Shown: in pieces, positions 8,569 through 44,020 of the stretch
Layout of the letters: every line of letters starts with the position of its first letter
How positions within the stretch are numbered: position 1 is the stretch's first letter
Assembly: GCA_965230935.1 (NCBI GenBank)
Contig: OZ246400.1
Coordinates: forward strand, 173,705-237,704
Reading direction: 5' to 3'
Origin: an uncultured Gammaproteobacteria bacterium
GTDB taxonomy: Bacteria; Patescibacteriota; Patescibacteriia; Magasanikbacterales; JBBTQS01
Length of the DNA stretch: 64,000 bases
The notes under the pieces: model-generated
Database searches by the model: none
Seen by the model: the letters and a program-made list of their open reading frames with translations, nothing else
Told to the model about the DNA's origin: nothing
Translations under genes and position numbers: made by a program

Positions 8569-9360
8569 ATGAAAAGATTATACATACTAGGCATGTCTTG
8601 TTTAGTTTTATTTGGTGCGGGTTGTGTAGATGTGCTTAATTACGCAAAAGAGGATTCTGAATTAAATCCAGTACAAGTAGGTTTGGCAAATTTTGATCTT
8701 ACTGGTGTTCAGCCGTTTAATGATCGTAATTCCATGAAAGGTCCTCATACTTTACAATTCACAGGGGAAGGCATGGTTATCTGGGAGGAGCACACTAAAA
8801 AGGCGCCGCCGTATAAAAGAAATGAGTGGCGTTGGTTCGGTTTTGAATTTAATACTACGGAAAAAACAGTTGAAGTTAAAGATTTTGGCATACAAACAAC
8901 TTCCAAAAAGTACCAAGGAAAAACTCGTATGAATACCTGTAGAGAACTTGAAGAACCGTTTGTCAGACACTACAGGTTTATTGATTGTAGTAAAGGCAAA
9001 TCAGCGTTGATATATATGAAAGATGATGATTTTACAAAAAATGAATGGTTTATGCAGGTAAGAGAATCATCTAGTGGGAAAGTTTTGTATGAAAAGGAGA
9101 TTGATGAAGAAGGGTTTAACACCTGGAACCAGGCAAGGGGCAAATTTTTAGATGATGTGCTGTATTATCAATCAGCAAAAGGTAAGGTGGTAGAATTACG
9201 CATGATAGATGGAGCTTCACGAGTACTATTGGATGTAGAGCGGACAGTGGCAGATTGGGATGTTAATGGAGAGCTGCTGATATATTCACAGTCGACAATA
9301 GAAGCTGAGCAAGATTATTCTGTCTATGATAGCTATCTATATGTTGTGGAGTACAATTAA
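8569..9360 (+). CDS. hypothetical lipoprotein
   Basis: Signal peptide with lipobox (MKRLYILGMSCLVLFGAGC). Confidence 0.7.
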   Translation: MKRLYILGMSCLVLFGAGCVDVLNYAKEDSELNPVQVGLANFDLTGVQPFNDRNSMKGPHTLQFTGEGMVIWEEHTKKAPPYKRNEWRWFGFEFNTTEKTVEVKDFGIQTTSKKYQGKTRMNTCRELEEPFVRHYRFIDCSKGKSALIYMKDDDFTKNEWFMQVRESSSGKVLYEKEIDEEGFNTWNQARGKFLDDVLYYQSAKGKVVELRMIDGASRVLLDVERTVADWDVNGELLIYSQSTIEAEQDYSVYDSYLYVVEYN

Positions 9361-13253: not shown

Positions 13254-13272
13254 GCCGACGTAATGCGTCGGC
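13254..13272. terminator. bidirectional hairpin between convergent genes 12656-13219 and 13305-14228
   Basis: gccgacg-taatg-cgtcggc perfect 7-bp stem. On the minus strand it is followed by a U-rich run. Confidence 0.6.
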
Positions 13273-13304
13273 TCGTTGTGTTGTTGGTGTGTGTCCTCAG
13301 ACGA

Positions 13305-14228
13305 TCAGGCGAACACCGAGGCGCCGCGGAACTGACGCATGACCCCACCTTTGAGGAAGGACAGATCACGCGACAAACGCAGTAGGTGCGCCAACTGCCG
13401 CTCAGTCTTGGTGCTCATCTTCTTGTGGTGTCGCTCCCAGAGCTCGGGCTGGGTGGCCGGATCAGGCACCTGGTAGCGCTGATCCTCGTGAGCCGGCAAC
13501 ACCGGAGCGATGCATTCGCCAAAGTGTTCGACCAAGGCCGCCAAAGGGAACACCTCCTCCACGCCCATGAGGTGGTAGTGAACCTCCTCGTCCTTGACCG
13601 GCGAGTAGCCGATCACCGCGGTATGCGCACGTTTGTACTCGTCCTTGGGCATGCCGGCCAGGTGCGGGGGGAACCCGCCCATGTCCAGCAGCGTCGGGTT
13701 GTGCCAGATGGCCATGGTGTTGGCAATGCGCCCCTCGAGAATCGACTCGGTGAGCTCGTTGATCGCCAGACCGGTAACCATGGCACCCTGCTCGAGCGCT
13801 GCCCACATGGCGTCGAAGTTCTCCTGCGTCAGGTACGGTTGAGCTTCTGTAGACGCGATCATGGAGAACTCACACCCATGCTGCAGCTGGATCCGCACTC
13901 CCTGATTGAGGATCGCGCAGTACAGGTCACCATAGGTGACGATGTGAACGGCCACATCAGCGACTCCGCTTTGCTTCATGGCATCGCACAGCGCCGCGTG
14001 TGTCTCGCCGCAGTCACTCTTGGCGTACCCATGTGCAGCCCAGACCAGCACGTCGACTCGCTTAAGGCGACTCAGCTGGTTGGCAAGGGTAAGCTGGTTG
14101 GCAGCACGGATCATCTCTACGACCTGTGCACACCGCTTCGGGACATCTTCTGCCTTCGTGGCAAAAGTGCGTAGGACAAGTCCTACATTGCGCACGCGCA
14201 TATTGCGCGGCTTGACCGAATTGGTCAT
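13305..14228 (-). CDS. hypothetical protein, high-GC cassette gene D
   Basis: 307-aa ORF with GGAGG SD 9 nt before ATG 14228. Body is strongly GC-rich with GC-rich codons. No domain recognised. Confidence 0.75.
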   Translation of the reverse strand: MTNSVKPRNMRVRNVGLVLRTFATKAEDVPKRCAQVVEMIRAANQLTLANQLSRLKRVDVLVWAAHGYAKSDCGETHAALCDAMKQSGVADVAVHIVTYGDLYCAILNQGVRIQLQHGCEFSMIASTEAQPYLTQENFDAMWAALEQGAMVTGLAINELTESILEGRIANTMAIWHNPTLLDMGGFPPHLAGMPKDEYKRAHTAVIGYSPVKDEEVHYHLMGVEEVFPLAALVEHFGECIAPVLPAHEDQRYQVPDPATQPELWERHHKKMSTKTERQLAHLLRLSRDLSFLKGGVMRQFRGASVFA

Positions 14229-14381
14229 TGGTTTCCTCCATAGTACTTCCCCAACGCATCAGGGAAATACGCAGTTGGCTTCTCACCGTACGACACTAGT
14301 CAGTTATCTGTCTTCTCCCTAACGCATCAGGAAAAATCAAGAACTGAGGGAACCGCGCCCCTACCGCTTGGCAAGACAAAA

Positions 14382-17479: not shown

Positions 17480-17508
17480 GCAATCTCCCACTCATCAACA
17501 ATGGGAGA

Positions 17509-18576
17509 TTGGAGGTCGCTTTGAGCACACCTGAGCCTGCGGGCAAACCTGCGGTCCGGATTGTCCAGGCCGTGGACCAACCGAACATCAGCAAAGCGAT
17601 CCACGCATTGCTGTTGTTCTTCGAGGAGCGTAACTGGGTCGACAACGACGCCATGATCCTGGAGCTCGGTCGTGCGCTGCACGAGGGTCATCAGTGTTGG
17701 GCACCGGTGTACGATCGGGACGCGGTCGGGACGCGGCTCATCTACGTACTGCCGTTCGACGGAGCGCAAGGACAGCGTCGCAGCGCCACGCGCTGCGTCT
17801 GGGTGTCCACCGCACGAGCGGATCTGATGGTCGAGCACATGATCGAACTTACCACCGGGCCATACGGTCGTGGTCGTAAGGCGCCGTCGGAGGGCATGTT
17901 CATCCAGGACACCGCAGCAACCGATCACCTCAACGAGTGTATCGGTCGCAAGATCGGTCGTCCGTGGGAGGTCGCTGACATTGCGTATACCGCGTCGCAG
18001 ACTTTGGCCGCGTGGTGGGCGGAGCAGCACCCGGTTCCGGCGACGCGCCGACCGGGACGCCGCGAGCGACTCAGTGAAGAGTTGTTGGGACACGTCAGGG
18101 AAGCACTGCGTTCGTCACAGCAGTTCGCCGTGGCCCCACCGCGTGGGTCGAGTGGCATGGGTTTTTACGTCCTGCCGATCGACCAGTGGACGCTCCAGCG
18201 CTGCATCGGGATAACGCTCAACGGCCACGCTGCCGAGGATTTGTCCCGGGATCTCGCCGGTCGGATTCGTTTGCACCTTGGCGACCGTTGGGAGCTGGGT
18301 GGCGACGAGGGTCCGGTGGAGGCCGAGTCCGATGTCATGAGCGTGAGTTCGGACGAGATCGAGTTCGAGCTCGAGTTCGACGACGATGCGGATGACGACG
18401 CGGACGACGAGAACGTCGCAGAGGCCGTGGTAGTTTCGCAGGTTGTCTCCGGTGACGAGCCGACGCAGGAGGCCACGCCGAGTGCCGGCACTGCTCCCAC
18501 TGACGAGCAGATGTCCACCCCAGCTGAGGACGGCAAAGGGCGCTCCGAGGGCAACCCTCCGGTTGGCCCGGCGTAA
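17509..18576 (+). CDS. hypothetical protein with acidic C-terminal tail, high-GC cassette gene A
   Basis: 355-aa ORF. Likely real start is TTG 17521, 5 nt after GGAGG (17511-17515). GC-rich codons. C-terminal EFELEFDDDADDDADDE low-complexity region. No domain recognised. Confidence 0.75.
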   Translation: MEVALSTPEPAGKPAVRIVQAVDQPNISKAIHALLLFFEERNWVDNDAMILELGRALHEGHQCWAPVYDRDAVGTRLIYVLPFDGAQGQRRSATRCVWVSTARADLMVEHMIELTTGPYGRGRKAPSEGMFIQDTAATDHLNECIGRKIGRPWEVADIAYTASQTLAAWWAEQHPVPATRRPGRRERLSEELLGHVREALRSSQQFAVAPPRGSSGMGFYVLPIDQWTLQRCIGITLNGHAAEDLSRDLAGRIRLHLGDRWELGGDEGPVEAESDVMSVSSDEIEFELEFDDDADDDADDENVAEAVVVSQVVSGDEPTQEATPSAGTAPTDEQMSTPAEDGKGRSEGNPPVGPA

Positions 18577-18608
18577 CTTTAGCCATCACACAACACACAC
18601 AACATGAA

Positions 18609-18637
18609 GAACGCGCAAACAAGCGCGCTCTTTGTAT
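18609..18637 (+). terminator. hairpin terminator after gene A
   Basis: gaacgcgc-aaacaa-gcgcgctc stem followed by tttgtattct. Confidence 0.65.
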
Positions 18638-18710
18638 TCTGGACAAAAGTAATTTGTTATAGTATGTATAAGATACCTGCATAAGAGATAGTGCAGGAAG
18701 AGGAGATCAG

Positions 18711-19478
18711 ATGTCACATGACGAATCGGCAGCGCCCCCGCAAGTGCCGATTGAGGAGGCCATTGTTGGGTTTTGCGCCCACATTGGATTGGTCGCCCGG
18801 AGTTCGTTTGGCGAGGAGTTGGTTGCTGCGGTGTGCCGAAAGGCCGTCTGCGCGATCGACATACAACCAGACTGGGATCAACGGGCAGTCTTTCGCGTAC
18901 CAGCAAAGCACGACCGTGTCTCGGGCGTGTTCGCAGTGATCTTGCTCGACGACGCGCTGAGCGAGTCGCTGACCAATGACTTCAATGAGCTTCTGCTGGG
19001 CTATGGCGGCTCAGGAGAAGGAGATGTTGATCACTGGAGTCAGACGACCAAGCTCACCCGCGCGGTTCGTGGGCTCAAGAGCTGGTTCAAGGACAGAGGC
19101 ATCCGTCTGGAGGTTGGGGATATCAACAGCTTTGTCACCGCCTGGGAAACTGGTGAGGTGAGAGAGTGGTCGTTTGATCAAGGTCGTGGAGCACCGGTGA
19201 TTGCGTTCGTCGTGCGTCCGTACGATGCCCCCAGAGACGAACGACGAAACAGTGAAGTTTGCGTCGAGGTGCACTGGGGTGACAGGCTCAACCACGAGTT
19301 GACTGCTGGTCTGAACCAGATGATCGACGATGCGTTGGGCCCCGATCTTCACTGGGACGTTCGGCGAACCACGGATGAGGACGCGTCTACGTCTGCCCAT
19401 TTTGCTGCACAGGAGGTGGCAGCCATCGGGGGGCAACAGCGGGAGCAACCGCGCCGTCGCAGCGCTGTGGGCGAGTAA
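18711..19478 (+). CDS. hypothetical protein, high-GC cassette gene B
   Basis: 255-aa ORF. ATG preceded by GGAAGAGGAG SD. GC-rich codons. No domain recognised. Confidence 0.75.
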   Translation: MSHDESAAPPQVPIEEAIVGFCAHIGLVARSSFGEELVAAVCRKAVCAIDIQPDWDQRAVFRVPAKHDRVSGVFAVILLDDALSESLTNDFNELLLGYGGSGEGDVDHWSQTTKLTRAVRGLKSWFKDRGIRLEVGDINSFVTAWETGEVREWSFDQGRGAPVIAFVVRPYDAPRDERRNSEVCVEVHWGDRLNHELTAGLNQMIDDALGPDLHWDVRRTTDEDASTSAHFAAQEVAAIGGQQREQPRRRSAVGE

Positions 19479-19502
19479 CTCAACACAACACACAACACAG
19501 GG

Positions 19503-19529
19503 CCTCCGCTACAACTTAGTGGAGGTTTT
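19503..19529 (+). terminator. hairpin terminator after gene B
   Basis: cctccgcta-caact-tagtggagg 9-bp stem followed by TTTT. Confidence 0.7.
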
Positions 19530-19537
19530 GTAATATC

Positions 19538-19566
19538 TTGACAGGAAAGCTGTCGCATAGTATAGT
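19538..19566 (+). promoter_or_regulatory. consensus sigma70 promoter for gene C (TTGACA-17-TATAGT)
   Basis: cTTGACAggaaagctgtcgcatagTATAGTc. Confidence 0.7.
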
Positions 19567-19590
19567 CTCTTCTCTCCTCATTGCATTGCT

Positions 19591-20238
19591 TTGATTAACT
19601 ACCGGGGAGGGAAGGGGGCTAACACCTTGAGTGAAGATTGGCGCGGCTTTGTCGCGGCACGTGAGGAAGATCGCGTTGCTGCGCTTGGTGCCGCAATGTC
19701 TCATCTGATGCAGCGAGTGGGGTTCATTGACCCCAAATCGCCTGGGGACAAGAAGTCTCGGAAGGCGCTTGCACAGATGGGGTCGGCATTGGCTGCCATG
19801 ATCAGTGCCGCCCGTTCCGGTGACGTGTACATCACGGTGCTGCAGGGCGAGCAGACAGGTTCCGACGTGCTGATCCAGGTGTTGCCATTCGCCCCGACTA
19901 TGATCGGCGATGGCGACGATGCCGCGTTGGATCTGAGCATGCCGCGTCGCACTCGCGAGCGGCTGGTCATGGTCTACACTCTCTCGCCGAACGGCACTGA
20001 CCGTGGCTTCGAGTTCTCTCTGGATCTCACCACCAGCTTCAACACAGGTGTGCAGCAGGTCATCGACGTGCAGCACACATCACTCCTGCAACGAGGTTTG
20101 AGGCCCAGGGAGCGATCCGAGTCCCCCCCGGCACCAAATGGCTGGTTGACCTGGGAGGACTGGCTCGAGGAGTCGGCACGACGCGCCGAGCAGTCGGGGA
20201 CTGGAGGCGAGGAGGTCGAGGAGTCCTCAGGCTCCTGA
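19591..20238 (+). CDS. hypothetical protein, high-GC cassette gene C
   Basis: ORF from TTG 19591. More likely start is TTG 19627, 8 nt after the GGGGAGGGAAGGGGG SD-like run. GC-rich codons. No domain recognised. Confidence 0.7.
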   Translation: MINYRGGKGANTLSEDWRGFVAAREEDRVAALGAAMSHLMQRVGFIDPKSPGDKKSRKALAQMGSALAAMISAARSGDVYITVLQGEQTGSDVLIQVLPFAPTMIGDGDDAALDLSMPRRTRERLVMVYTLSPNGTDRGFEFSLDLTTSFNTGVQQVIDVQHTSLLQRGLRPRERSESPPAPNGWLTWEDWLEESARRAEQSGTGGEEVEESSGS

Positions 20239-20272
20239 TCACTCACAACAACAACCACACCACAACGGCAGG

Positions 20273-20297
20273 CCCGGCGTATACGCGACGGGTTTTC
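20273..20297 (+). terminator. hairpin terminator after gene C
   Basis: cccggcgtatacgcgacggg (contains the 10-nt palindrome gcgtatacgc) followed by TTTT. Confidence 0.6.
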
Positions 20298-20331
20298 CAA
20301 TTCTAAAGAGAAAATATGCTATGATGCCATT

Positions 20332-21104: not shown

Positions 21105-21821
21105 TTATGTTTTCTTCAAAAGTTTGAGTTCTTTTTTGGTAAGTTCCCGTGAATGACCAACTGGAAGTCGGTCAAGAAGTAGTTTCCCGATTCGGATTCG
21201 TTTAAGGGAATCAATACCAAGATGTACCGCAGCACACATACGTCGAATTTGTCGTTTCTTTCCTTGGGTAATAATAATACGCATGGTGTGTGCATCGACT
21301 TTAGTAGCTTGCTTTGCTGTTACCACGCCATCACCATCAGCAATGTCAACCCCTGCTTTAAGTTGGTGTATATGTTCCGGAGTAATCTCATTTTTTGTAA
21401 CAATCTCATATTCTTTTTCATGTTCAAACTTCGGATGACTGAGTTGCTGAGTAAGTTCACCATCAGTGGTGAGTATCATTAATCCCGAGCTGTTCTTGTC
21501 TAATCTTCCAATGGAAAATAATCGAACATCGCTTTTGACTAAACTATAGATATTTTTCTCACCAGAAAACCGCGCATGCGTACTGACATATCCAACGGGT
21601 TTATGGAGCATGAGATAGATATGAACGGTCATTTGATCAACACGATTGCCATCAACTGTTACAATATCTTCCGGATGAACGCGACTGGTAACCGTCGCCA
21701 CCTTGCGATTGATACGGACACGTTTTTCACGGATTAGTTTTTCTGCTCGTCGACGGGAACAGATTCCGGCATTGGCAATATATTTTTGAAGATTCTCCGG
21801 TTTTGATTGTTGTTTTGACAT
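21105..21821 (-). CDS. pseudouridine synthase, RsuA/RluB family
   Basis: N-terminal S4 domain (ANAGICSRRRAEKLI) and catalytic GRLDKNSSGLMILT motif. Confidence 0.88.
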   Translation of the reverse strand: MSKQQSKPENLQKYIANAGICSRRRAEKLIREKRVRINRKVATVTSRVHPEDIVTVDGNRVDQMTVHIYLMLHKPVGYVSTHARFSGEKNIYSLVKSDVRLFSIGRLDKNSSGLMILTTDGELTQQLSHPKFEHEKEYEIVTKNEITPEHIHQLKAGVDIADGDGVVTAKQATKVDAHTMRIIITQGKKRQIRRMCAAVHLGIDSLKRIRIGKLLLDRLPVGHSRELTKKELKLLKKT

Positions 21822-21912
21822 ATACCCTTATCATACGCGTAAGTGTTCAGCTTGAAAAGCGCGTATGCAAACACGCCATCGGTTGGGATGGGTGTTGCGT
21901 TGTGGGTGTTGG

Positions 21913-22239
21913 TTAAAAATATGCGGCCAGATGGTCGAGGAGTTCTGGGTTTGCACGCAGGTGTGCCAAGGTTTGGTCACGACGAGCCGTTGTGGTGTAC
22001 CACGTCAAAAAAGACTTTACCGCCATGGTGTACGGGCTGGTTTCGGGTCGTGAAACATGCGCGTCAAGGCACGCTTGAATCCAATCACCAAGCAAATCCA
22101 TTTGTGTTGCCGTAAGTCTACGAACAACAAATCGCGTGCTATATGGGTACAAGTCGAGAACGCGATGCCAGTGCAACTTTGGTGTACTCTTTACCAGCAC
22201 TGTGATAAGGGGTTGGTGCACGGGTTGGAGTCGTCGCAT
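21913..22239 (-). CDS. hypothetical small protein (uncertain)
   Basis: 108-aa ORF directly downstream of the Cys-rich lipoprotein, overlapping it in another frame. The C-terminal 60 aa read protein-like. The start may be an internal Met. Confidence 0.3.
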   Translation of the reverse strand: MRRLQPVHQPLITVLVKSTPKLHWHRVLDLYPYSTRFVVRRLTATQMDLLGDWIQACLDAHVSRPETSPYTMAVKSFLTWYTTTARRDQTLAHLRANPELLDHLAAYF

Positions 22240-22496
22240 GGTACATCAGCGATTTGGTCACTGATCACACTGACACATGACTGGCTCAGTGGATCCCACC
22301 AGGTGTCGATGCATGGGGTCGGGCTCACACAGATCGTTTCAGCCGGCGAGGGTTCACTTGTCGGCGCAATAGCCTGCCTGTGCGTGCATGGTTCTGATTC
22401 AATAGTAGTATGTTCATCTGACCCGACTTCACATCCCAACAATAAGATACTTAAGATGATTTGTGGTTTCATATGCTCCTTGTCCAACATCAGCAA
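22191..22496 (-). CDS. small secreted Cys-rich lipoprotein sharing the DDxNPCT motif
   Basis: Probable start at Met 22472 (MKPQIILSILLLGC lipobox; AAGGAG upstream). Mature part has 8 Cys and ends ...VPCDDSNPCTNPLSQCW. Signal-peptide codons are AT-rich; the Cys-rich part is GC-rich. Confidence 0.6.
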   Translation of the reverse strand: MLMLDKEHMKPQIILSILLLGCEVGSDEHTTIESEPCTHRQAIAPTSEPSPAETICVSPTPCIDTWWDPLSQSCVSVISDQIADVPCDDSNPCTNPLSQCW

Positions 22497-22560
22497 TTAG
22501 AGTACTATACAAGCACATTGCGAGCAGATCAAGATCTATTCTGCGTATAACCTGTTTATT

Positions 22561-23451
22561 ATGAGTGAAAAAATCGCCATCCTTGGTGCCGGGGCATTTG
22601 GTCAAGCACTGGGGCATCTGTTGATTAAACCCGGACATACTGTTACCTTTTGGGATGTTGACACCAAAAAGCTCAATCATGGAAAGACATGTGATCAAGT
22701 GGTTCAAGAAGCAGATATTATTTTTTTTGCAGTGCCGTCATGGTGTTTACGAGAAAGTATTGGCATGGTATTGCCGTGTGTGAAACCAGAAGCCGTCTTT
22801 GTGTCAGTTTCAAAAGGGATTGAGAAAAAAACATGTGCAACCACTGATCAGATTTTTTCTGAAGAAATCAATGGAGATCGCGCAGTAGCCTATCTTTCCG
22901 GACCAATGCTTGCAGCGGAGATTGTGCAGGACAAACCCACTGGTGCACTGATTGCTTCAAAAGACATTGCTATTGCTAAGCGGATTGGTGGACTGTTTAC
23001 GAATACTGGTTTGCGTACCGTCACCAGCACTGATGTGCGAGGTGTTGCACTCTGTGGTGTGTTGAAGAATATTTACACTATTGGTATGGGAATGGCGCAT
23101 GCATTGCGACTCGGGGATAATGCAAAGGGATTTATTTTGTCTCAAGCGATTCATGAGATGGTTGCTATTGCGGTCAAGCTTGGTGGTACAAAAGAAACCA
23201 TGTTTGGTGCAGCAGGATTGGGTGATCTGATCACTACCTCTGCTGGAATGTATTCACGAAATTTTACCTTTGGATACACATTTGTGCGTAGTAGTGATGG
23301 ACAGGTTACTGCAGAGGGTGCGAAGTCATTTTTGCAACTGCAGCAGATGATTGGAGATACTACTCCGTATCCATTGCTTGATCAACTTATTGAGGTACTT
23401 GAGCGCAAGATCACTCCACAGCAATTCTTTACTCGTTACTTTGCGTCTTAA
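22561..23451 (+). CDS. gpsA: NAD(P)H-dependent glycerol-3-phosphate dehydrogenase
   Basis: IAILGAGAFGQALG Rossmann motif and GpsA-length C-terminal domain (GLGDLITT). Confidence 0.88.
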   Translation: MSEKIAILGAGAFGQALGHLLIKPGHTVTFWDVDTKKLNHGKTCDQVVQEADIIFFAVPSWCLRESIGMVLPCVKPEAVFVSVSKGIEKKTCATTDQIFSEEINGDRAVAYLSGPMLAAEIVQDKPTGALIASKDIAIAKRIGGLFTNTGLRTVTSTDVRGVALCGVLKNIYTIGMGMAHALRLGDNAKGFILSQAIHEMVAIAVKLGGTKETMFGAAGLGDLITTSAGMYSRNFTFGYTFVRSSDGQVTAEGAKSFLQLQQMIGDTTPYPLLDQLIEVLERKITPQQFFTRYFAS

Positions 23452-41337: not shown

Positions 41338-43989
41338 ATGAATCGAATAGCTATTACCCTTGCCTTTGCCGCCCTGATCGCAGGGTGTGCAGACGCATCG
41401 GTAGATCCAGGAACGGTCGAGTGTTTCGGCGAGGCCTGTGCCAAGCCGGACGCCGATACGACCGGTGGTGGGGAGGTAGTCCCTCCGGATACCACACCGG
41501 ATGTCGGCGACACCGGTGATGACAGTGATGATCCGGATGTGCTCGAGACCGACGACGGTGCTGAGGTGGACGACATCAATGACGCCGATACGGCCGTCGA
41601 GGATGTGGACATCGACGTTCCGGACGAGGGTGATGATGGCGACACGCCGGATGTGCCCGAGACCAACGACGGTGCTGAGGTGGACGACACCGAGGACACC
41701 GACGAGACGACGGACACGGACGAGACCGATACGCCTGTTGATCCCTGCGATGGGGTCGACTGCACGGACGACAACCCGTGCACCATCGACGAGACGTGCG
41801 TGGATGGCGAGTGTGTCAGCTCGCCGGTCGTCTGCAACGATGACAATCCGTGTACGGACGATGCGTGCGTCGTGATTGAAGGTGGGTGCGTGTATACCCC
41901 GAACGCAGTGCTGTGTGAGGATGGCGACCCGTGTACGCTGGAGGACGCCTGTGTGGACGGTTCCTGTGCGCCTGGCGCACCGAAGATCTGCCAGGATGCC
42001 AACTTCTGCACCGTGGATGCGTGCGACCCGGTTTCCGGGGAGTGTGCCTTCGTGGTCGTGCCCGAGCCCTGCGATGATGGGAACGAGTGTACGCAGGAGG
42101 AGGTGTGTCAGCAGGACGCCACGTGTGGCAACGGGGCGGAAGTGGAGTGCGCAGACGAAGATCCGTGCACGAACGACAGCTGCAATCCGGACTCGGGTTG
42201 TGTGTTTGCTCAGAAGGAGTGCGACGACGAAGATCCGTGCACCGTTGACTTGTGCGAGACCGAGTCTGGCGAGTGTACCTTCGTGATCGTGCCGGAGTGC
42301 AAATGCGCTCCTGAGCAGTGTACGGACGACAACCCGTGCACGTCGGACGTGTGCAACCCGCTCGACGGGTCCTGCTCCTTCCCGTTCAACACGGAGCCGT
42401 GTGACGATGGCGACCCGTGTACGTTGGAGGACGCCTGTGCGGACGGTTCCTGTGCGCCTGGCGCGCCCAAGTCGTGTATCAGTGAGAACATCTGCCTGAG
42501 CGCGAGCTGCAATCCGGAGACGGGGAGCTGTGAGCTGAGTGAGAACACCGCGCCGTGTGACGATGGCGATGCGTGCACCCAGGAAGATGTGTGTAACGAA
42601 GGTTCGTGCGCTGGCGTGCTGATGGTGTGTACGGACGACAACCCGTGCACCGAAGGCGACACGTGCAATGGCGGCACTTGCGCCGCCGGGGAAGCCAAGG
42701 TCTGCGAAGACGGTAACCCCTGCACGGTTGGTGCGTGCGACCCGGATTCCGGGGAGTGCGCGTTTTCCCCGGACAACGGGGGAAGCTGCACGGACGACAA
42801 CCCGTGCACCAACGACGTCTGCCAGGACGGGGAGTGTGTGAGCGAGGCCAACAGCGCCTGCTGCACTGAAGACGCGCAGTGCGCTGACGAGCTGGCCTGT
42901 ACGCAGGACCAGTGCGTGGAGCAGTTGTGTAAGAACTTCGTCATTCCGGGCACCGGGCATTGCCTTATCGAGGAGGTGTGTATTCCGGAAGGGGTGGTCA
43001 ATTCGGCCAACGACTGTGAGGCTTGCACCTCGATGGTCAACCCCAACGGGTGGAGCCCGCTTGTGGATGGGAGCGATTGCGAAGATGGACAGGCGTGCAC
43101 CGAAGGCGACACGTGCAATGGCGGCACTTGCGCCGCCGGGGAAGCCAAGGTCTGCGAAGACGGTAACCCCTGCACGGTTGGTGCGTGCGACCCGGATTCC
43201 GGGGAGTGCGCGTTTTCCCCGGACAACGGGGGAAGCTGCACGGACGACAACCCGTGCACCAACGACGTCTGCCAGGACGGGGAGTGTGTGAGTACCACAG
43301 TCGCGTGCGACGACGGTCTCCCATGCACTCTGGATTCGTGTGACGAGGCGGGCGAGTGTCAGTACGAGCCCAAGACGTGTGACGACTCCAATCCGTGCAC
43401 CATCGATTCGTGCGAGCAGAGCACCGGCGATTGCGTAGGTGAGCTTGCTACGGTGAAGTTCCAGGACATCACCGCGGCCAAGTGCCTCACGCTTCCGCCG
43501 TTCATGCCATGGTTCGCGTTTGATGACTTCGATGACTCGGAGTCGCCCAATTCGAACATCTGGCACTGCGGTCACGACTGCCTGAACATCGACGCGGCCT
43601 GCCAGTCGCAAGTCGGTACGATCCGTCCCGGGTTTACGCACAACGGGGACCAGCACACCTTTACCATCGACCCGCAAGCAGCGTTTCCGGAACTTGACGG
43701 CATGACCATCTCGGCCGCCTTCACGTTCCGCAGGCAAGGGGTAACGCCCAACGACCTGACGCCGCCTGAGGTTGTGGTGAAGCAGACCATCGACGGAATC
43801 GAAACGGTGCTTGCCTCGCAGTTCCTGGGCAAATCACCGAACAACAATTTCGATTTCCTGGTCGAGTTCCTGGTTGGTGATGGTTTGGTCACGGTGTACT
43901 ACACGCCCAACGACTTCATCCCCGACTCGGAACGCACGCTGCACATCATGCTCGACTCGAACATCGAGCTGCAGCCTGTGTGTCCCTGA
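41338..43989 (+). CDS. large Cys-rich tandem-repeat lipoprotein (CxDDNPCTxDxC repeats, slime-mold/Dicty-CTDC-like)
   Basis: Lipoprotein signal (MNRIAITLAFAALIAGC), acidic D/E/T-rich linker, then roughly 20-25 repeats of about 22-25 aa with 4 Cys each (e.g. CTDDNPCTIDETCVDGECV). C-terminal roughly 170-aa Cys-poor domain. GC-rich codons. High-GC cassette gene E. Confidence 0.85.
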   Translation: MNRIAITLAFAALIAGCADASVDPGTVECFGEACAKPDADTTGGGEVVPPDTTPDVGDTGDDSDDPDVLETDDGAEVDDINDADTAVEDVDIDVPDEGDDGDTPDVPETNDGAEVDDTEDTDETTDTDETDTPVDPCDGVDCTDDNPCTIDETCVDGECVSSPVVCNDDNPCTDDACVVIEGGCVYTPNAVLCEDGDPCTLEDACVDGSCAPGAPKICQDANFCTVDACDPVSGECAFVVVPEPCDDGNECTQEEVCQQDATCGNGAEVECADEDPCTNDSCNPDSGCVFAQKECDDEDPCTVDLCETESGECTFVIVPECKCAPEQCTDDNPCTSDVCNPLDGSCSFPFNTEPCDDGDPCTLEDACADGSCAPGAPKSCISENICLSASCNPETGSCELSENTAPCDDGDACTQEDVCNEGSCAGVLMVCTDDNPCTEGDTCNGGTCAAGEAKVCEDGNPCTVGACDPDSGECAFSPDNGGSCTDDNPCTNDVCQDGECVSEANSACCTEDAQCADELACTQDQCVEQLCKNFVIPGTGHCLIEEVCIPEGVVNSANDCEACTSMVNPNGWSPLVDGSDCEDGQACTEGDTCNGGTCAAGEAKVCEDGNPCTVGACDPDSGECAFSPDNGGSCTDDNPCTNDVCQDGECVSTTVACDDGLPCTLDSCDEAGECQYEPKTCDDSNPCTIDSCEQSTGDCVGELATVKFQDITAAKCLTLPPFMPWFAFDDFDDSESPNSNIWHCGHDCLNIDAACQSQVGTIRPGFTHNGDQHTFTIDPQAAFPELDGMTISAAFTFRRQGVTPNDLTPPEVVVKQTIDGIETVLASQFLGKSPNNNFDFLVEFLVGDGLVTVYYTPNDFIPDSERTLHIMLDSNIELQPVCP
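42644..42842 (+). repeat. 199-bp perfect direct repeat, copy 1 (inside Cys-rich lipoprotein gene)
   Basis: Identical base-for-base to 43094-43292. Encodes CTEGDTCNGGTCAAGEAKVCEDGNPCTVGACDPDSGECAFSPDNGGSCTDDNPCTNDVCQDGECVS. Confidence 0.95.
43094..43292 (+). repeat. 199-bp perfect direct repeat, copy 2
   Basis: Identical to 42644-42842. The 450-nt offset is exactly 150 codons, so recombination between copies would be in-frame. Confidence 0.95.
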
Positions 43990-44020
43990 CCCTCAAGACA
44001 ACAACAAACCTACAACAGTA

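Follow-up and report, generated by a model that had tools for sequence, protein, structure and literature searches.

On our preferred reading, to which we give a probability of about 0.5, the small open reading frame at 22191-22472 on the minus strand is, or recently was, coding and represents a short, degenerate N-terminal stump of a bacterial lipoprotein family built from Dicty_CTDC cysteine repeats. The stretch of DNA analysed here, called the window, is 64,000 nucleotides long. The small ORF lies, together with a 108-aa ORF, in a gap of 739 bp that separates two divergent housekeeping genes, and the window also encodes an 883-aa protein of the same repeat family. The features referred to below are as follows.

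21105-21821, minus strand: gene for an RluF/RsuA-type pseudouridine synthase, flanking the gap
21860-22190, no strand assigned: GC-rich remainder of the islet (45-60% GC), downstream of the small ORF
21913-22239, minus strand: 108-aa ORF, sharing 49 nt with the small ORF in a different frame
22057-22500, plus strand: 147-aa antisense "shadow" ORF, called on ENA and Logan contigs (its protein record lists NCBI too)
22194-22388, minus strand: codons 29-93 of the small ORF, a GC-rich module with 7 Cys, aligned in register to Dicty_CTDC units
22215-22238, minus strand: CDDSNPCT, the sole canonical half-unit, a peptide also found at residues 681-688 of the 883-aa protein
22275-22331, minus strand: unit B (CVSPTPCIDTWWDPLSQSC), within the GC-rich module, after a P/T/S/E linker or decayed unit A
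22389-22430, minus strand: codons 15-28, acidic tether EVGSDEHTTIESEP in host-type codons (mean log-ratio about +1.04)
22431-22472, minus strand: codons 1-14, putative lipoprotein signal peptide MKPQIILSILLLGC with lipobox LLGC and Cys14, from a PROSITE-like lipobox pattern
22476-22481, minus strand: Shine-Dalgarno (SD) sequence AAGGAG, 3 nt before the ATG at 22472
22504-22532, minus strand: promoter-like site TTGATC-17 nt-TATAGT (consensus scan, 9/12 matches), some 32 nt ahead of the ATG at 22472
22561-23451, plus strand: gpsA, the other flank of the gap
41338-43989, plus strand: gene for the 883-aa paralogue ("gene E"), a LIAGC lipoprotein carrying some 20 Dicty_CTDC units (Pfam PF00526, 121.5 bits, 11 stretches)

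The minus-strand frame is open from a TTG at 22496 to a stop codon at 22191-22193. An earlier note on this DNA had reported an ORF with a lipobox signal spanning 22191-22496; such an ORF exists, with the ATG at 22472 as a likelier start than the TTG. Initiation at this ATG, the most plausible choice from the sequence context, would give a product of 93 aa and is preferred because AAGGAG lies 3 nt upstream, position -1 is a T (true of 34 of the 38 host genes) and the TTGATC-17-TATAGT site precedes it. A 6-mer SD stands in front of just 0.4% of all ATGs in the window. Promoter-like sites are identified by consensus match only, the region holding 5 of them against 2.1 expected.

The N-terminus read from this ATG (MK-PQIILSILL-LLGC) matches a PROSITE-like lipoprotein pattern consisting of a positive N-terminal residue, a hydrophobic stretch and a lipobox of the form [LVI][ASTVI][GAS]-C. 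The pattern is found at only 8 of the 574 ATG-initiated ORF starts in the window. Two of the eight are alternative starts of the small ORF itself and two belong to the clear lipoproteins beginning at 8569 and 41338, whose canonical lipoboxes suggest that the lipoprotein pathway is in use in this organism. Counted from ATG 22472, the lipobox cysteine is residue 14, one residue below the PROSITE range of 15-35; it is residue 20 or 22 if translation begins at the upstream ATG or TTG.

The coding sequence is a mosaic. Synonymous codon choice was compared between 40 host genes and 5 genes from the GC-rich islands of the window (see below), each codon being scored as log2 of host over island usage. 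Codons 1-14 are host-like (mean +1.10), as are codons 15-28 (about +1.04); reference chunks of 14 codons score 0.61 ± 0.38 in host genes and -0.54 ± 0.34 in island genes. Codons 29-93 average -0.21, which is high for island genes but still within their range. The break is best placed between codons 28 and 29, at window position 22389/22388 (permutation p 0.03), and GC3 rises from 8/28 in codons 1-28 to 43/65 in codons 29-93 (Fisher p 0.0013). The AT-to-GC switch at synonymous sites is real and goes beyond an effect of amino-acid composition. This agrees with the claim that a signal written in AT-rich codons is followed by a GC-rich module, but not with the placing of the junction, which lies 14 codons past the lipobox cysteine and within the first PCT. 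Across all island genes, too, the first 14 codons lean toward host usage.

As a whole, the small ORF has a codon score under the 5th percentile of real genes. Codons 29-93 score +0.067 bits per codon with the island table and +0.089 with the table from the 883-aa protein's gene, the best of the six frames and within the leave-one-out range of real island genes (means 0.04-0.20). With a generic island table from which that gene was left out, the antisense frame comes slightly ahead (+0.015 versus -0.165), so that codon statistics alone are not decisive. The minus-strand frame is favoured because the signal peptide, the SD and the repeat homology are all on the minus strand.

Typical units of PF00526 comprise about 24-27 residues and four conserved cysteines (C-x-D-x-N-P-C-T-x-D-x-C ... 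G-x-C). The GC-rich module of the small ORF consists, in order, of the P/T/S/E linker or decayed unit A, unit B, a truncated unit C and the stop codon at 22191-22193. Its units are thus one putative with 1 of 4 cysteines, one with 3 of 4 (a Cys having become Trp) and one canonical half-unit. The module had been described as containing eight cysteines; it is indeed cysteine-rich, but the mature part has 7, and 8 are reached only when the lipid-attachment cysteine is counted. In the aligned segments of the paralogue there are 12 cysteines, so that 5 of 12 are missing here, and the stop codon interrupts the last unit. The sequence [DN]PLSQ(S)C can be read twice within the small protein.

The motif held to be common to the small ORF and the large repeat protein is confirmed, CDDSNPCT being present verbatim at residues 681-688 of the latter. 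Six of its eight codons are identical in the two genes and all are of island type; DNA similarity does not extend beyond 22 nt. At the protein level, BLASTP places residues 25-86 (about 62 residues) in register with 2-2.5 units of the 883-aa protein at several places (28.9 bits, 34% identity). None of 300 shuffles of the mature peptide reaches this score (15.6 ± 2.0 bits). When the segment beginning with CDDSNPCT is removed, 21.9-22.3 bits remain, a score reached by 0-2 of 300 shuffles. Against 120 relatives from other organisms the mature peptide scores 34.7 bits (shuffles 22.1 ± 2.0, none of 200 reaching it), and 26.2 bits without the motif (2 of 200 shuffles, p about 0.01). A family profile of triple units gives 13.7 bits over profile positions 5-60, matched by 2 of 500 shuffles; on removal of the motif this falls to 4.4 bits, matched by 48 of 500, and a single-unit profile detects the terminal motif alone. 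The proposed alignment to the repeats of 41338-43989 beyond the short motif is therefore borne out in the pairwise comparisons but not by the motif-removed family profile. From these comparisons, homology to the Dicty_CTDC repeat family is well supported for the last 1.5 units of the small ORF and weakly supported upstream of them.

Searches of the small ORF against Pfam (E ≤ 1) and NCBIfam return no family, the PF00526 gathering score (27 bits) not being reached, and a word-index search finds no homologue; none of the 93-, 101- and 108-aa products has an exact-protein record. An AF2 model of the mature peptide built on the paralogue alignment has a mean pLDDT of 50, judged too low for a fold search, and only a hairpin in unit B is predicted with confidence (pLDDT 57-74).

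At E ≤ 1e-5, relatives of the 883-aa protein number more than 5600. The best 120 of them all carry PF00526 and measure 587-1543 aa, mostly well over 1000 (typically 1000-1500); where named, they are Deltaproteobacteria/Myxococcales MAG proteins or "cysteine-rich repeat protein". An N-terminal lipobox is present in 73 of these 120, several are ordered as signal peptide, acidic or P/T linker and repeats, and two align colinearly with the small ORF from their own N-termini. Because 73 of 120 relatives carry a lipobox and the parts come in the same order, the small ORF looks like the front end of a family protein, resembling the first 90 residues of a long member. A Myxococcus cysteine-rich repeat model, considered as a candidate for the 883-aa protein, was unsupported, NCBIfam giving no family.

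With the 883-aa protein, the small ORF shares a lipoprotein signal peptide, an acidic linker, units of the C-x-D-x-N-P-C-T type, CDDSNPCT itself, GC-rich island-type codons and an SD site. It differs in having at most 2.5 units instead of about 20, in lacking the C-terminal non-repeat domain and a Pfam match, and in its first 28 codons being of host type. The bacterial PF00526 proteins annotated as "cysteine-rich repeat" or "slime mold repeat-containing" show in-register likeness to residues 25-86, at up to 35 bits; those listed carry intact 4-Cys units by the dozen, often along with further domains, whereas the small ORF has 93 aa, is degenerate and falls below every curated threshold. Dicty_CTDC repeats are extracellular, disulfide-rich units. 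The Dictyostelium proteins, eukaryotic founders of the Pfam family, belong to the same repeat family as the 883-aa paralogue but are secreted and are not lipoproteins; the likeness is through the Pfam family only. Literature mentioning Dicty_CTDC contained nothing on bacterial members.

In the small ORF, the promoter-like site, the SD and the ATG lead into a 14-residue signal peptide and a 14-residue acidic tether in host-type codons; past the junction at codons 28/29 follow the GC-rich linker or decayed unit, the unit with 3 of 4 cysteines and the half-unit CDDSNPCT cut by the stop. By analogy with established lipoprotein biogenesis, the product, if made, would be exported by Sec, Lgt would add diacylglyceryl at Cys14, and signal peptidase II would cleave before this residue. 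What would remain is an acidic peptide of 80 residues, including the lipidated cysteine, that is anchored to the membrane on its non-cytoplasmic side.

Most likely, the small ORF is what survives of an acquired gene that was shortened by deletion, and is non-functional or in decay, though still competent for expression. We infer this because the long repeat array and the C-terminal domain are absent and the free cysteines are odd in number (7). The array comprises at most 2.5 units before the stop, and repeat similarity is absent downstream of it in any frame. Truncated gene remnants accompanied by antisense shadow ORFs are a general phenomenon in bacterial genomes, and the pattern is shared here: a short orphan ORF is partly like a full-length paralogue, a left-over flank lacks a coding signal, and a longer antisense ORF is chosen by gene callers. 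A dead remnant would need neither the fully intact start signals nor the host adaptation of the 5' end that are seen here. These features count against the remnant reading insofar as they fit a maintained functional gene equally, and simple truncation does not account for the sharp codon switch at 28/29. The earlier note had offered a truncated or a founder paralogue. Truncation agrees with the last unit being cut by a stop; a founder role is not credible because the family, with its more than 5600 members, is so large and widespread, and the present copy has lost cysteines. Taken alone, the small ORF would be an ordinary truncated paralogue of a very common surface-protein family and says little on function.

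It is possible, though we consider it rather unlikely, that the small ORF encodes a functional small surface lipoprotein, in which a host export signal and tether captured one or two foreign cysteine-repeat units to yield a mini-adhesin, a decoy or a structural lipopeptide. The frame is intact, a promoter-like site and an SD precede it, and its ATG follows a T, as is typical of the host. Host adaptation is complete over codons 1-28, and the first 14 codons of island genes lean the same way, which could reflect selection on translation in a host that seldom uses SD sequences. Unit B retains its AF2-predicted hairpin, and the repeated [DN]PLSQ(S)C is also in keeping with function. Such a protein would, however, carry an odd number of free cysteines and a truncated last unit; the word-index search yields no homologue of it, AF2 confidence is low for two thirds of the chain, and the listed members of the family are all many times longer.

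We think it improbable that the small ORF is a chance frame, the islet being non-coding foreign GC-rich debris in which a lipobox-like start and a repeat motif happen to coincide at a host intergenic junction. Consistent with this view, gene callers leave the ORF uncalled, its whole-ORF codon score is below the 5th percentile of real genes, the motif-removed profile test is not significant and no homologue was found by word index. Against it stands the joint occurrence of a 6-mer SD (0.4% of ATGs), a lipobox (about 1% of ORF starts) and in-frame repeat similarity that no shuffle attained (0/200 to 0/300), in an architecture that equals that of the paralogue 19 kb away. Together, the SD, the signal peptide and the repeat similarity are more than chance.

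The idea of a native secretion signal grafted onto a foreign repeat unit fits the codon data. The SD, however, resembles those of the GC-rich island genes, whereas 35 of the 38 host genes have none, so that this origin is tentative. In its strongest form, the idea amounts to the birth of a chimeric gene, with a host lipoprotein signal and tether fused at codon 28/29 to an acquired scrap of cysteine repeats and now maintained as a mini-lipoprotein; we regard this as unlikely. If it were true, the locus would be one case of a wider pattern in a deep-branching bacterium with few SD sites of its own, in which SD-bearing, GC-rich orphan genes are inserted singly between AT-rich host genes, their 5' ends being progressively adapted.

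The 108-aa ORF overlaps the 3' end of the small ORF in another frame, as the earlier note had described. That it could be a partner (an immunity protein or chaperone) did not hold up: neither ORF has homologues, and the 108-aa ORF shows no translation signals and no coding signal with the island tables. Its other proposed role, as a frameshifted continuation, is contradicted by tblastn of the 883-aa protein, which matches nothing downstream of the stop in any frame, and by the identity of four assemblies at this place. Most likely, the 108-aa ORF is not a gene but a frame that happens to be open in left-over GC-rich DNA. Neither of its ATGs has an SD or a T at -1, no match was found in Pfam, NCBIfam, PHROG or the PDB, and the word index holds no homologue. 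The sole phmmer match among 1.84 billion representatives (E 3.8e-11) was discarded as an artefact, in which ten weak matches are summed on a translated tandem repeat (P0122). Its host-table codon score does not exceed the 5th percentile of real genes. AF2, run on the single sequence, gives generic helices at residues 44-105 (pLDDT 61, with 64-78 for the four helices) that match no solved fold, and the first 46 residues are predicted disordered. An integrase N-terminal (SAM-like) domain was considered and rejected, with no Pfam or PHROG match and no fold match. That either the full ORF or the 62-aa helical part beginning at Met47 is a real small gene, co-transcribed with the small ORF and serving the lipoprotein as partner, immunity protein or chaperone, is also unlikely. 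The shared strand, the lack of a predicted terminator between the two ORFs, the four helices (here at pLDDT 64-78) and a host-table score from Met47 of +0.078, at the 5th percentile of real host genes, are in its favour; the want of homologues, families, folds and start signals noted above, the disordered first 46 residues and island-table scores that are negative in all six frames speak against it.

The remainder of the islet at 21860-22190 is negative in all six frames with the island codon tables, and similarity to the 883-aa protein or to other island proteins is absent in any frame. A structured RNA in the GC-rich islet was rejected as well: no Rfam family is found, and with folding z-scores of -0.49 and -1.97 the minus strand is not unusually structured.

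The 147-aa ORF on the plus strand (protein P0001) is a singleton in 90% clustering, and the public calls that include it miss the lipoprotein-like ORF on the minus strand. It has no SD, no T at -1 and no Pfam or PHROG match. Its frame scores -0.10 and -0.46 bits per codon with the island and big-gene tables, and is negative with the host table too. By manual calculation from the coordinates, its third codon positions fall together with those of the minus-strand ORF, and it accordingly behaves as a shadow ORF. The reading implied by public annotation, in which this ORF is the true gene and has the minus-strand frames as its shadows, can draw on its being the longest ORF in the gap, on the calls on ENA and Logan contigs with NCBI listed as a source, and on a marginally best score with one codon table, but is very improbable given the absence of start signals, family and cluster partners, the negative scores with all three tables, the classic shadow configuration and the lack of recognisable protein features on a strand whose opposite has a signal peptide and repeat homology. 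The public gene calls (ENA, NCBI, Logan) thus appear to annotate the wrong strand here.

The locus is recorded on a 931-kb NCBI contig and on contigs of ENA project PRJEB17505 (runs ERR2281800 and ERR2281801); no publication turned up under the project or run accessions. Four assemblies, made from two sequencing runs, agree exactly on its sequence, which makes a frameshift error unlikely. The four source contigs compared are identical or nearly so, hence dN/dS is not computable. With gpsA as query, no close relative of the organism was found among GTDB species representatives or JGI metagenome contigs. The best matches in these collections, in MAGs labelled Omnitrophota, are only 31-34% identical, and the intergenic region is for this reason not comparable across relatives.

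The window has a mean GC content of about 43%. The islet within the 739-bp gap is a small GC-rich segment (45-62% GC, about 21860-22390), and larger GC-rich islands are found at about 13.3-14.3 kb, 17.5-20.3 kb and 41.3-44.0 kb, with GC3 values of 0.65-0.80 in island genes against 0.31-0.39 in host genes. Neither Pfam nor PHROG has a family for the island proteins of 307, 355, 255 and 215 aa, and the island boundaries show no conserved sequences, flanking repeats, tRNA or shared boundary sequence. Being placed among SD-bearing, GC-rich inserts, the small ORF could mark how this lineage acquires, trims and adapts foreign surface-protein genes.

Some further observations concern the surroundings. 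An SD sequence is rare in host genes, 3 of 38 carrying even a weak one (the starts examined include 22561, 23750 and 24366). Host starts have a T at -1 in 34 of 38 cases, with a G-poor upstream and an A-rich downstream sequence. The three GC-rich island genes checked (41338, 14228 and 18711) have an SD and lack the T at -1. A promoter-like TTTTCA-17-TATGAT sequence is present on the minus strand at 21830-21858, at the downstream edge of the islet and shortly ahead of the pseudouridine synthase gene. Since terminator prediction finds none from the small ORF to this gene, read-through transcription is possible. The gene for the 883-aa protein contains an exact duplication of 199 nt (42644-42842 and 43094-43292). 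By coordinate arithmetic, a 102.8-kb ENA contig would end within this gene, at about window position 42032. The gene may break short-read assemblies, so that its repeat count is perhaps unreliable. Finally, the islands at 13270-14290, 17480-20300 and 41340-43990 are inserted singly or in a short row amid housekeeping genes, and their high GC content is limited to the ORFs, the spacers between island genes being AT-rich (for example 18620-18680, 35% GC).
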